NCBI GenBank assembly: GCA_964016885.1 | Contig: OZ024746.1 | Coordinates: 77,624,001 to 77,688,000, forward strand | Length of the DNA stretch: 64,000 bases | Source of the DNA: Eledone cirrhosa | Taxonomy: Eukaryota | Reading direction: 5' to 3' | In this document: one piece after another, positions 5,165 to 58,610 of the stretch | Numbering within the stretch: position 1 is the first letter of the stretch | Layout: each line of letters begins with the position of its first letter | Program-made: the position numbers and the translations under genes | The notes under the pieces: model-generated | What the model was told of the DNA's origin: nothing | Databases searched by the model: none | What the model saw: the letters and a program-made list of their open reading frames with translations, nothing else

Positions 5165-7456
<2,292 letters not shown>

Positions 7457-7532
7457 TTACCCGTCTAACCCATGCTAGCGTGGAAGAACGGACGTGAAAC
7501 GGTTATGATGATGATGATGATGATGATGATGA
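7457..7532 (+). mobile_element. Isolated RTE-type 3' tail ending in (GAT)n
   Basis: cccgtctaacccatgctagcgtggaagaacggacgtgaaacg followed by (gat)n; the same terminus as the RTE/SINE copies elsewhere in the window. Confidence 0.8.
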
Positions 7533-7704
7533 TAATACAATATGTTGAAAAGATAACACACTAGAGAGAGAGATAGTGCGCCATCAATCAAACAGGGAAA
7601 AACCACCAGTGTATGGAATCTATAGCCCATGGAAGGCAGAGTAGACACACAATAATTAAAAGTATAAATTAAAGTGTAAATACATACCTCGATAACTATC
7701 TAAC

Positions 7705-7785
7705 ACACACGTACAAATCCAAAGAAATCTGTTTCGCCAGTAAGTTCTTGACAGAAATGATAGCCCATGGTTCATCAGTGTGTGT
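7705..7785 (-). ncRNA. Type I hammerhead ribozyme (left-arm copy; stem I closing pair mismatched)
   Basis: Minus strand reads acacaca-CTGATGA-acca..tggc-GAAA-cagattt cttt ggatttg-TA-cgtgtgt. Confidence 0.7.
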
Positions 7786-8046
7786 AAGGTTATACATTTC
7801 AGACAACTCTACGAGAATCTAAAGCGACTGTCCAGCCACATGTGGGAGAGAGAATTCGCAGCGTGCCTAGGGCAGTAACCAGTGGCCTCTGAGGGACGAG
7901 CTGCTAGAAAGGGCAGCCCAAACCACTCAGAGAAATGTGCTCAATCAAACAGAGAGAGAGGAAAGACTGTTATAGGCACGCTGTGAATTCTCTCTCCCAC
8001 GTGTGGCTGGACAGTCGCTTTAGATTCTCTTAGAGTTGTCTGCCTT

Positions 8047-8127
8047 ACACACGCTGATGAACCATGGGCTATCATTTCTGTCAACAACTTACTGGCGAAA
8101 CAGATTTCTTTGGATTTGTACGTGTGT
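8047..8127 (+). ncRNA. Type I hammerhead ribozyme
   Basis: Stem I acacacg(8047-53)/cgtgtgt(8121-27); CTGATGA 8054-60; stem II cca..tgg (A.C at 10.1/11.1); GAAA 8097-8100; stem III acagattt/ggatttgt; GUA cleavage triplet 8118-8120. Confidence 0.8.
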
Positions 8128-8644
8128 GTTAGATAGTTATCGAGGTATGTATTTACACTTTAATTTATACTTTTAATTATTGTGTGTCTACTCTGCCTTC
8201 CATGGGCTATAGATTCCATACACTGGTGGTTTTTCCCTGTTTTATTGATGGCGCACTATCTCTCTCTCTAGTGTGTTATCTTTTCAACATATTGTATTAT
8301 AAAGATCTCGGGGTTCCTTCTCCTTTGAGCACATTACTGACAGGGAATAGCGAGAGTCTTTGGGTCCCTTAATTTATCGTATATATATATATGAGAAAGA
8401 GAGAGAGACCCTTGGTGGGAATAAGGGGGGAATAAAGGTAAAATAGGACATAGCTAGAAGATAAAACAAAGAGAATAATAATAATAATAATAATGATAAT
8501 AATAATAAATGTCAGTATAAAATATCATTAAACAAAACCAAGCCAACATTAATAATCCATTAATTTAACTTTGTTGTTACGGTTTGTTGCAGACATTATC
8601 TACTTTTTGTATTGCAATCTTGTAGCTCAGTAATTATTGTACAG

Positions 8645-13688: not shown

Positions 13689-13808
13689 ATGCTTACGGCA
13701 CCTAGGGTTTCCAAGTGGTTACCCATCTAAGTACTAACTAGGCTCGGCGTTGTTTAACTTCGGTGATCAGACGAGAACCGGTGTTTTCAGTGTGATATGG
13801 CGGTAAAT
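13689..13808 (-). rRNA. 5S rRNA: Dispersed, diverged 5S rRNA copy (probable pseudogene)
   Basis: 120 nt on the minus strand: atttaccgccatatcacactgaaaacaccggttctcgtctgatcaccgaagttaaacaacgccgagcctagttagtacttagatgggtaaccacttggaaaccctaggtgccgtaagcat. Metazoan 5S with internal control region (gaagttaa..agtactt.gatggg); 5' end and box C carry substitutions; no TTTT terminator. Confidence 0.92.
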
Positions 13809-27890: not shown

Positions 27891-28114
27891 ACACACACAC
27901 ACAAAACAAAAGTCCGGAGCTCAGTCATCTGGGTCCTGATTTCTTTCATACATATATATATATATAAATATATATAAAGGTTAAACAAGGTTCAATGAAT
28001 AAATCAAAGAATGAGTTTTACAATAGATTGGAAGCACTCAACAGAAATGGTTTTCCGGAGTTATTAATATTAATTCAAAATATTAACAAAAATAGACATT
28101 CGTGTGATCAAGCA

Positions 28115-28181
28115 TATTTTATTATACATATTTCAGAGGTACCGAGCTATCTTCAACAGTACGTCCTCATCAGATAAAATA
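28115..28181 (-). ncRNA. Type I hammerhead ribozyme (left arm)
   Basis: Minus strand tattttat-CTGATGA-ggacgtactg..cggtacctct-GAAA-tatgta-TA-ataaaata; stem I is 8 Watson-Crick pairs. Confidence 0.78.
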
Positions 28182-28253
28182 AGATGATGCATGACATACC
28201 CTGACATCTGAATCTTAACCAACTACTATGTCAGGGTATGTCATGCATCATCT

Positions 28254-28320
28254 TATTTTATCTGATGAGGACGTACTGTTGAAGATAGCTCAGTACCTCT
28301 GAAATATGTATAATAGAATA
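28254..28320 (+). ncRNA. Type I hammerhead ribozyme (right arm)
   Basis: Stem I tattttat/atagaata; CTGATGA 28262-68; stem II gga.gtactg/cagtac.tct; GAAA 28301-04; self-complementary stem III atatgtat; AUA triplet, predicted cut after 28312. Confidence 0.78.
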
Positions 28321-28969
28321 TACTTGATCACACGAATGTCTATTTTTGTTAATATTTTGAATTAATATCATCATCATCATCATTTCATTTTACGTCCGCT
28401 TTTTCCCTGCTTGCAAGGGTATACACACACATACACACATTCATATGTATATATATATATACTTATACACACATACATATGTATATATATATATATATAT
28501 ATATCATCATCATCATCATTTTACTACTGGCTTCCATGCTGGCAAAAAAAACAAAAAAACAGACATACATATATTGCTACGCATTTGTAATTGCAAATAT
28601 TTATCACTTCATATGATCCCTAGTGCCCTTTCTCTCCTCTCCCTTGCTCAGTTCTGCTATCTGCCCCCCCCCCCCCCTCCTCAGTCACAGTAACAATGGC
28701 TGGTATGCAGAACACTTTTTTTTTTCTTTTTTTTCTCAAGCATATCTGCACTGTCAAATGCATTTACCTTTGAGAGACCTGCTGGAATTCCTCATTTGAG
28801 CCGCCTACCAAAGTGGTGAAGTGATGTAGTGCTGAAGGAAATGTTGTTTGAATATGTGATTTATATAAGTGCTGAGACAATTCAAGTAGCAACATAGTAA
28901 TTTCATAGGAATTCTTCTATCTCCTACTGGTAGTGGTGGTGGTGGTGGTGGTTATTGTTTCTTATATAT

Positions 28970-58294: not shown

Positions 58295-58550
58295 ATTTCA
58301 TACAAAACGCCAGCACCAGTTTTGCAAGAGATGTCAACATGAATGGACCTATTATTTTTATCTAAAGACATTTTTTCCAATTCCAGCCCGCCCATCCCCT
58401 TAATCTATTTTATTTCTCATTCTTTCTTCTGAAGAAGGACTAGCGTCCGAAACGTTAAGATCCTCTTCCTGCTATATCAAGCGTTAACCTAATATATACT
58501 TTCCATATACTGTACTGATTGTGTTGTTATTTCTGTTTACCTTTTACATA
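58295..58550 (+). mobile_element. Penelope-like pLTR remnant
   Basis: RCQHEWTYYFYLKTFFP (from 58329) resembles the R..RE...I..L.T..P.GLN end of PLE GIY-YIG ORFs; it is followed by a minimal hammerhead; the tail gattgtgttgttatttctgtttacctttt also occurs near 2603. Confidence 0.65.
58425..58460 (+). ncRNA. Minimal type I hammerhead ribozyme
   Basis: tctt-CTGAAGA-a-ggac tagc gtcc-GAAA-cg-TT-aaga: stem I tctt/aaga, 4-bp stem II, palindromic stem III acgt, GUU triplet. Confidence 0.82.
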
Positions 58551-58554
58551 CACT

Positions 58555-58610
<56 letters not shown>

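Follow-up and report, generated by a model that had tools for sequence, protein, structure and literature searches.

Anatomy of the hairpin

The window, by which we mean the whole 64-kb stretch of DNA that was analysed, carries between positions 27943 and 28383 a compact inverted repeat. Its two arms, 28067-28207 and 28228-28368, are reverse complements of 141 bp each with exactly three mismatched pairs (28113/28322, 28119/28316 and 28143/28292), and they flank a spacer of 20 bases, 28208-28227, which is unpaired between them. The element as a whole is asymmetric: the left copy reaches 99 bp past its arm, to about 27968, so that the total comes to ~400 bases. If the repeat family is numbered with q1 at window position 28208, the right copy covers q1-q161 on the plus strand and the left copy q21-q260 on the minus strand, and what looks like the loop of the hairpin is family sequence of the ordinary kind, which runs straight on into the right arm. 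The head-to-head junction of the two copies, at 28207/28208, is blunt and shows neither palindrome nor microhomology, and the 20-mer at this junction has a single occurrence in the 3.0-Gb genome. The segment 27957-28205 matches a natural family copy at 96%, while the arms differ by 2-4% from a typical copy. The features of the locus are the following:

27943..27967, no strand: left-flank target run of (TA)n type, inside which a target-site duplication is unreadable
27968..28066, minus strand: one-sided tail of 99 nt; body sequence found 3' of the 5' pLTR in full-length copies, where it leads to the ORF start; outer end in (TA)n
28067..28207, minus strand: left arm, a 5'-truncated pLTR piece (q21-q161) with private sense A-to-G changes at 28113 and 28143
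28107..28188, minus strand: left type I hammerhead motif; C3 at 28173, N17 at 28123, predicted cut after 28123
28208..28227, plus strand: spacer, formed by the first 20 positions (q1-q20) of the right copy; it begins some 9 nt downstream of the putative transcription start
28228..28368, plus strand: right arm, a tailless pLTR piece that stops at q161, the short 3' end; private A-to-G change in stem I (28316)
28247..28328, plus strand: right type I hammerhead motif; C3 at 28262, N17 and predicted cut after 28312
28254-28261/28313-28320, plus strand: stem I of the right motif
28262-28268 and 28301-28304, plus strand: core of the right motif
28269-28278/28291-28300, plus strand: stem II of the right motif
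28304-28311, plus strand: palindromic stem III of the right motif
28369..28383, no strand: (CAT)n run of host sequence, adjoining the insertion point on the right

A repeat search of the whole window is dominated by microsatellites, and a Pfam match was found for 0 of its 123 ORFs of at least 70 aa, a survey from which short exons could escape.

The Hammerhead Motifs and Their Folding

A structure-aware scan recovers one motif in each arm, both of type I and reading outwards, with an AUA triplet and an 8-nt self-complementary stem III; the same scan yields 0.15 hits per 64 kb in 20 block-shuffled windows. Scan and coordinates together confirm what the earlier note had described, namely 141-bp arms with about three differences around a 20-bp loop, an outward hammerhead in each arm, the self-complementary stem III, the AUA triplet and the cut predicted after 28312. 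An Rfam scan of the hairpin returned no hammerhead model; its matches were to microRNA-like hairpins, each scoring less than the gathering cut-off.

Stem II contains a C.C mismatch and has G.U as its first pair in place of the customary G10.1-C11.1, which is replaced by A-U in most rows of the sister families and is found in its G-C form in L005 and L117. The sister families (L016, L045, L061, L088, L091, L100, L121, L145, L158 and L160) share the core and stem III, have A-U at 10.1-11.1, keep the C.C mismatch in stem II and often occupy the same TA-rich spots. Across 14 rows taken from this and the sister families, 97.4% of 266 cells are paired, against 37-53% in slid controls, a result that is partly built in, given that the rows were pre-selected for pairing and are mutually related. 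In the same rows six of nine stem II pairs are changed on both sides, while the core and stem III are nearly invariant; the core conservation among homologues whose absence the earlier note had named beforehand as refuting its reading is present. Judged by these comparisons, the motif belongs to a real hammerhead family, on which selection has acted in the parent lineages.

At the locus itself the predicted folding is quite different. Read-through RNA from either side is predicted to fold as a hairpin of -224 or -232 kcal/mol, the monomer ribozyme fold to reach -8.4 kcal/mol, and the hammerhead pairs to form in the read-through RNA with a probability below 1e-27. The ribozyme is predicted to be inactive because the antisense arm precedes it in read-through RNA of either direction, and a tandem dimer is impossible on one RNA because the two hammerheads sit on opposite strands. 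According to these predictions, the hammerheads would be locked inside the hairpin, each sequestered by its antisense arm. The two-strand ribozyme device that had been proposed for this locus would founder on the same points: opposite strands, no tandem dimer, and each motif predicted to be buried by the antisense arm.

The Parent Element

The arms belong to an abundant dispersed repeat: an exact 24-nt stretch of the hammerhead core has 3,883 copies in the genome and its control has none. At one locus (L057) the arm shares its strand with a broken RT/GIY-YIG ORF situated about 1.8 kb upstream; non-coding sequence of that length connects the two, and an inverted piece of the arm is found at the 5' end. 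Among 20 loci selected by their ORF, 16 continue through the 3' UTR into the arm, and in 13 the 5' end is adjoined by an inverted copy of the family; exactly one tail is present in all 10 of those with both outer ends visible, as counted by eye. The one full-length copy seen (L156) has the order pLTR, hammerhead, tail, ATG ~57 nt later, ORF, 3' UTR and pLTR, its direct pLTRs being 4,543 bp apart; the tail sequence precedes the ORF ATG both here and in L095.

Translation of the single ORF gives RT motifs, then a Cys-rich linker (CxC...C...C) and then a C-terminal domain of GIY-YIG type. Pfam matched no family in four natural ORF pieces of the arm's own family, and since it is silent on them the RT/GIY-YIG call leans on translation motifs, on homology with a neighbouring family, whose ORF has a weak GIY-YIG match, and on searches for homologues and clusters. 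For a 477-aa piece of the ORF there are 591 homologues at E<=1e-10, most of them without a name, and the Atlas clusters closest to it contain RVT_1, HTH_animal and GIY-YIG in differing proportions. Together with the microsatellite pattern, these homologues and clusters point weakly to a molluscan host, perhaps a cephalopod. A Cys-rich linker between RT and C-terminal endonuclease is given as a Neptune feature in the passages cited from Arkhipova et al. (2013; PMC3846280) and Craig et al. (2021; PMC8557442). On sequence grounds, then, the arms are best identified as pLTR pieces of an EN+ Penelope-like element (PLE) with the hammerhead inside its pLTR, and this element is assigned to the Neptune type from domain order and Cys-rich linker as read in the translations. 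Thus the assignment to PLE hammerheads made in the earlier note is upheld by the link of the arm to an RT/GIY-YIG ORF, and the genome search for the arrangement and a linked PLE ORF returned dispersed repeat, head-to-head pairs and ORF alike. The family may already bear a name among the octopod PLE families in the supplement of PMC8557442. Another Neptune-type family lies on the minus strand at L059:5938-8362; it has long open frames (188 and 605 aa), and a low-complexity insert separates its RT from the Cys-rich linker.

Head-to-Head Insertions across the Family

The architecture of the insertions was followed in 69 loci, which are the first exact core matches on contig C1 in genome order, with L108 left out because it forms the second half of L107, one already sampled match skipped and close pairs taken once. 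Their 3' ends fall into two classes, 45 short (q161) and 23 long (q260), with one other. An inverted hit adjoins the 5' end in 36 of the 65 loci that have this end inside the locus; omitting five of these 36 with unresolved ends leaves 31 head-to-head pairs, 30 of which have one tail, one none and none two (P=1.5e-8 against 50:50), two of the 30 (L128/L130) being one segmental duplication. The latter spans 1.8 kb at 94% identity and bears the same head-to-head stub in both halves. Of the 30 pairs with one tail, 24 have a tailless arm that extends further 5', and often the tailed partner consists of tail alone, without counterpart in the other arm.

The 5' ends are concentrated as well. Among the 63 that lie between q-300 and q130, 26 fall in q-15..q0 and none in q-39..q-16, where 2.3 are expected; some of the ends upstream of q-40 are alignment breaks in diverged subfamilies (with shared flanks, e.g., L104/L126). 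The pile-up coincides with a TCACT motif ~30 nt below a TATA box, seen in nine of the nine copies printed. Hammerhead cleavage was considered as a source of the 5' ends and rejected, none of 101 ends lying at the cut site (q100-112). In the main texts of the open-access literature we found neither a strict one-tail count nor a pile-up of 5' ends at the start site.

The outer ends lie within (TA)n in most copies, a repeat in which target-site duplications are unreadable. The junctions vary between loci and the arm lengths are continuous, from <100 bp to several kb with ORF. Contigs from four public runs contain many further, differing head-to-head joints; among the contig pieces listed for these runs, none spans the junction of the present locus or its whole stretch. 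In a separate head-to-head insertion (L140, G000:C1:63697634-63697904) the plus arm has three hammerhead-core matches 65 bp apart, tandem cores with which a dimer fold could form.

Differences between the Arms

Two of the three differences between the arms fall in hammerhead stems, U-A to U.G in stem I and U-A to U.G in stem II, and the third in the internal loop of stem I; all are A-to-G on the sense strand of the element. The family state at the three sites is A in 59/59, 59/61 and 59/61 arms, and the G variant occurs in 0/59, 1/61 and 0/61, counted in arms not chosen by the difference sites. The variants at 28113 and 28143 had looked like common family polymorphisms, an artefact of searching with the left arm, while unbiased arm sets show A. 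The stem II G variant has 20 copies against 3,914 with A (20/3,934, 0.5%), the per-site A-to-G rate being 0.4%. Reverse-transcribed A-to-I editing was rejected as a source of the changes: among 1,126 singleton changes there is no strand excess, with 106 A-to-G against 138 T-to-C (p=0.11).

In inserted copies the core and the remainder of the arm decay at the same pace, that is, neutrally; changes in 29 ORF-selected arms amount to 8/319 in the core, 20/1,158 in the stems and 57/2,199 elsewhere. Pairing is kept by 8 of these 20 stem changes against 22% expected (p=0.056), a weak trend towards preserved pairing that runs counter to the other counts. The earlier note was right that both stem differences of the hairpin keep pairing, an outcome with a chance of ~5% under the family mutation spectrum; pairing is preserved because the A-to-G changes lie opposite U, which makes it automatic. 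Such pairing does not count as a signal of function, the changes being private and at background frequency in a core that decays neutrally. From the family comparison, the arm differences are private, derived and neutral changes, with no sign of selection.

Other Features of the Window

A further foldback at 7532-8385 has the same one-tail head-to-head layout, with a hammerhead of GUA triplet and monomer-type stem III. As stated in the earlier note, the two families are unrelated, with only microsatellite-type matches between 7532-8300 and the hairpin studied here. The family of 7532-8385 has two 3' ends, 8300 and 8385, and 2,700 first-look candidates; its insertion in the window carries the tail, about 85 nt long, on the right arm. 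Its other copies show a partial-tandem, retrozyme-like unit of about 540 nt without linked ORF; none was found within 1.5 kb in 25 loci, and two GIY-YIG matches near copies of the 7532-8300 family appear to belong to neighbouring insertions. The segment 7860-7973, part of the spacer of this foldback, is inverted relative to other copies. Directly to the left of the foldback lies a TA/TG microsatellite of about 2.3 kb (5175-7460).

A third, single minimal hammerhead is found at 58420-58565 on the plus strand, with an extra base after A9, a G-C closing pair and a 4-nt palindromic stem III. Behind it come about 100 nt with (TA)n at their end, and it looks like the solo end of another PLE family; similar sequence flanks L023. 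Finally, a copy of 5S rRNA (91.8 bits) on the minus strand at 13690-13808 has several broken pairs and is probably a pseudogene.

Origin of the Hairpin

The best explanation of the hairpin, to which we assign a probability of about 0.93, is a single short insertion of a Neptune-type PLE, in which two 5'-truncated pLTR ends, one of them tailed, lie head to head in a TA run, likely through priming by the RT/endonuclease on both cut strands. The hairpin is then likely to be ordinary debris rather than a two-strand ribozyme device. The sequence of events would be as follows. The RNA of the element would start at the TATA-Inr site ~9 nt above window position 28208, as predicted from the motifs and the 5' ends. 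Reverse transcription would start from two AT-rich positions within the RNA, q161 and q260, each serving one target strand; a short 5' leader would be copied up to run-off at or near the RNA 5' end, and the two cDNAs would be joined end to end. After insertion the arms have gained their three neutral differences. The hammerhead itself was under selection in the parent elements, where it probably worked as a dimer or with the aid of a protein.

A different origin for the second arm, which we regard as unlikely, is that it was copied from the first by fold-back or self-priming, on DNA or on an antisense RNA, with no need for two target primings. Just such a mechanism is proposed in the relevant passages of PMC3846280 for head-to-head PLE insertions with junction palindromes, and it would fit the near-identity of the arms within one insertion, which often have subfamily variants in common. 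The geometry of the present insertion is hard to reconcile with it: neither arm contains the other, the tailed one starting at q21 and the tailless one at q1, and the junction in the window is blunt, with no palindrome or microhomology. Across the family, the further 5' reach of the tailless arm in 24/30 pairs and the tail-only partners without counterpart speak in the same direction. Arm geometry and blunt junction together exclude a plain DNA fold-back, while an RNA template jump or antisense self-priming stays compatible with them.

That the locus is instead a functional two-strand ribozyme hairpin under selection, transcribed from either side and either cleaving or feeding editing and small-RNA pathways, is very improbable. 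One could point to the intact cores, to the ~5% chance of both stem differences keeping pairing, to the natural occurrence of the stem I U.G variant in sister families and to the long double-stranded RNA that would form at a predicted -224 kcal/mol; yet intact cores are expected because the arms are only 2-4% off the typical copy, and the stem II variant is as frequent as the background of A-to-G changes. The core decays at the background rate, no A-to-G excess exists on the sense strand, the ribozyme fold is predicted to be blocked with the motifs on opposite strands, and no 5' end in 101 lies at the cleavage site. Moreover, metazoan PLE hammerheads are stated to cleave poorly even as dimers in the pertinent text of Cervera and de la Pena (2014; PMC4209133). 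Slighter still is the probability that the hairpin is a non-autonomous foldback, MITE-like unit or retrozyme that was copied ready-made. Its short symmetric size would suit such a unit, the 7532-8385 family resembles a unit of about 540 nt devoid of an ORF, and a preprint (10.64898/2026.07.22.740005) argues for a descent of non-LTR retrozymes from PLE pLTRs. But a junction 20-mer present once in the genome and junctions that differ between loci largely refute this possibility, and the continuous range of arm lengths, up to several kb with ORF, and the inverted arms, with no tandem hammerhead units, also stand against it.

With the insertion of two PLE ends as the preferred reading, the locus itself is one of thousands of dead stubs and unimportant individually. 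Its value lies at the level of the family, where the one-tail rule, the 5' ends at the TATA-Inr site and the 99-nt tail bear on PLE integration, a step described as undefined in the literature passages that we draw on. We would give even odds to the more specific proposal that these stubs record the integration reaction, a dimeric RT/endonuclease priming once at each internal RNA site, one per strand, and hardly ever twice at one site (30 of 31 pairs), with mini-hairpins being run-off copies of the capped 5' leader that end at the transcription start. If it were true, the promoter of a Neptune element and its two priming sites could be located from genome counts alone, and its in vitro product foretold. 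A point against the preferred reading is that both 3' ends lie in AT-rich motifs that resemble the target, whereas the start sites reported in PMC11167929 are not homologous to the cut DNA. The earlier note had also concluded, from the shared architecture of two unrelated families, that a general mechanism deposits ribozyme hairpins; a mechanism common to both foldbacks stands, but it is the one-tail head-to-head PLE insertion already published and not a new kind of ribozyme-hairpin deposition. For genome scans there is a warning here: outward-facing hammerheads paired in one hairpin are what PLEs usually leave behind.

Comparison with Known Systems

The head-to-head, one-tail layout of 27968-28368 has already been described for EN+ PLEs. 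In the portions relevant here, PMC8557442 reports an inverted 5'-truncated copy adjoining the 5' end, with a tail of 30-40 bp often at one end only, and PMC3846280 the head-to-head layout together with a TATA box and a TCACT Inr-like motif in rotifer pLTRs. The present family resembles the EN+ PLEs of these accounts in its 5'-truncated head-to-head copies, one-end tail and simple-repeat target, in the TATA and TCACT Inr-like motif of its pLTR, and in a tail that is body sequence beside the 5' pLTR. It differs from what they describe in having a tail of about 99 nt rather than 30-40, an ORF that starts ~57 nt beyond the tail and not inside the pLTR, and a 3' UTR of 1.8 kb, and at 27968-28368 both copies are reduced to the pLTR. 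Single ORF, RT, Cys-rich linker and C-terminal GIY-YIG are as in the Neptune clade.

As regards the ribozyme, the corresponding text of PMC4209133 describes pairs of minimal hammerheads on opposite strands about 100-700 bp apart, with a palindromic helix III that needs a dimer and low cleavage even as dimers. Our motif is likewise of type I with a palindromic helix III and a long helix II, and departs from the metazoan PLE hammerheads presented there by its G.U at 10.1-11.1 (A-U in the sisters) instead of G-C, by the lack of an extra base after A9, by the conserved C.C mismatch in stem II and by a helix I of 8 bp.

The closest biochemical parallel is the Poseidon protein of Anolis (PAc). According to the sections drawn on from Frangieh et al. 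(2024; PMC11167929), PAc cuts and extends both target strands in vitro, its RT starts at two internal sites that define the tail, the protein is predicted to be a dimer and hammerhead cleavage is not needed. Two internal RT start sites that set the tail, use of both strands and an AT-rich target would be shared by our family, as judged here from genome ends, and in both cases the hammerhead cut is absent from the product ends. In contrast to PAc as reported there, the start sites here are ~99 nt apart and AT-rich like the target, the element is of the Neptune and not the Poseidon clade, and the comparison on our side comes from genome sequence only. Non-LTR retrozymes and viroid-like RNAs, finally, resemble the hairpin in their type I hammerhead and in having a motif on each strand. 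The hairpin differs in that its arms are inverted, in place of the head-to-tail tandem units of retrozymes, in that there is no sign of circular RNA, and in that its motifs are inverted duplicates of a single sequence rather than independently evolved.
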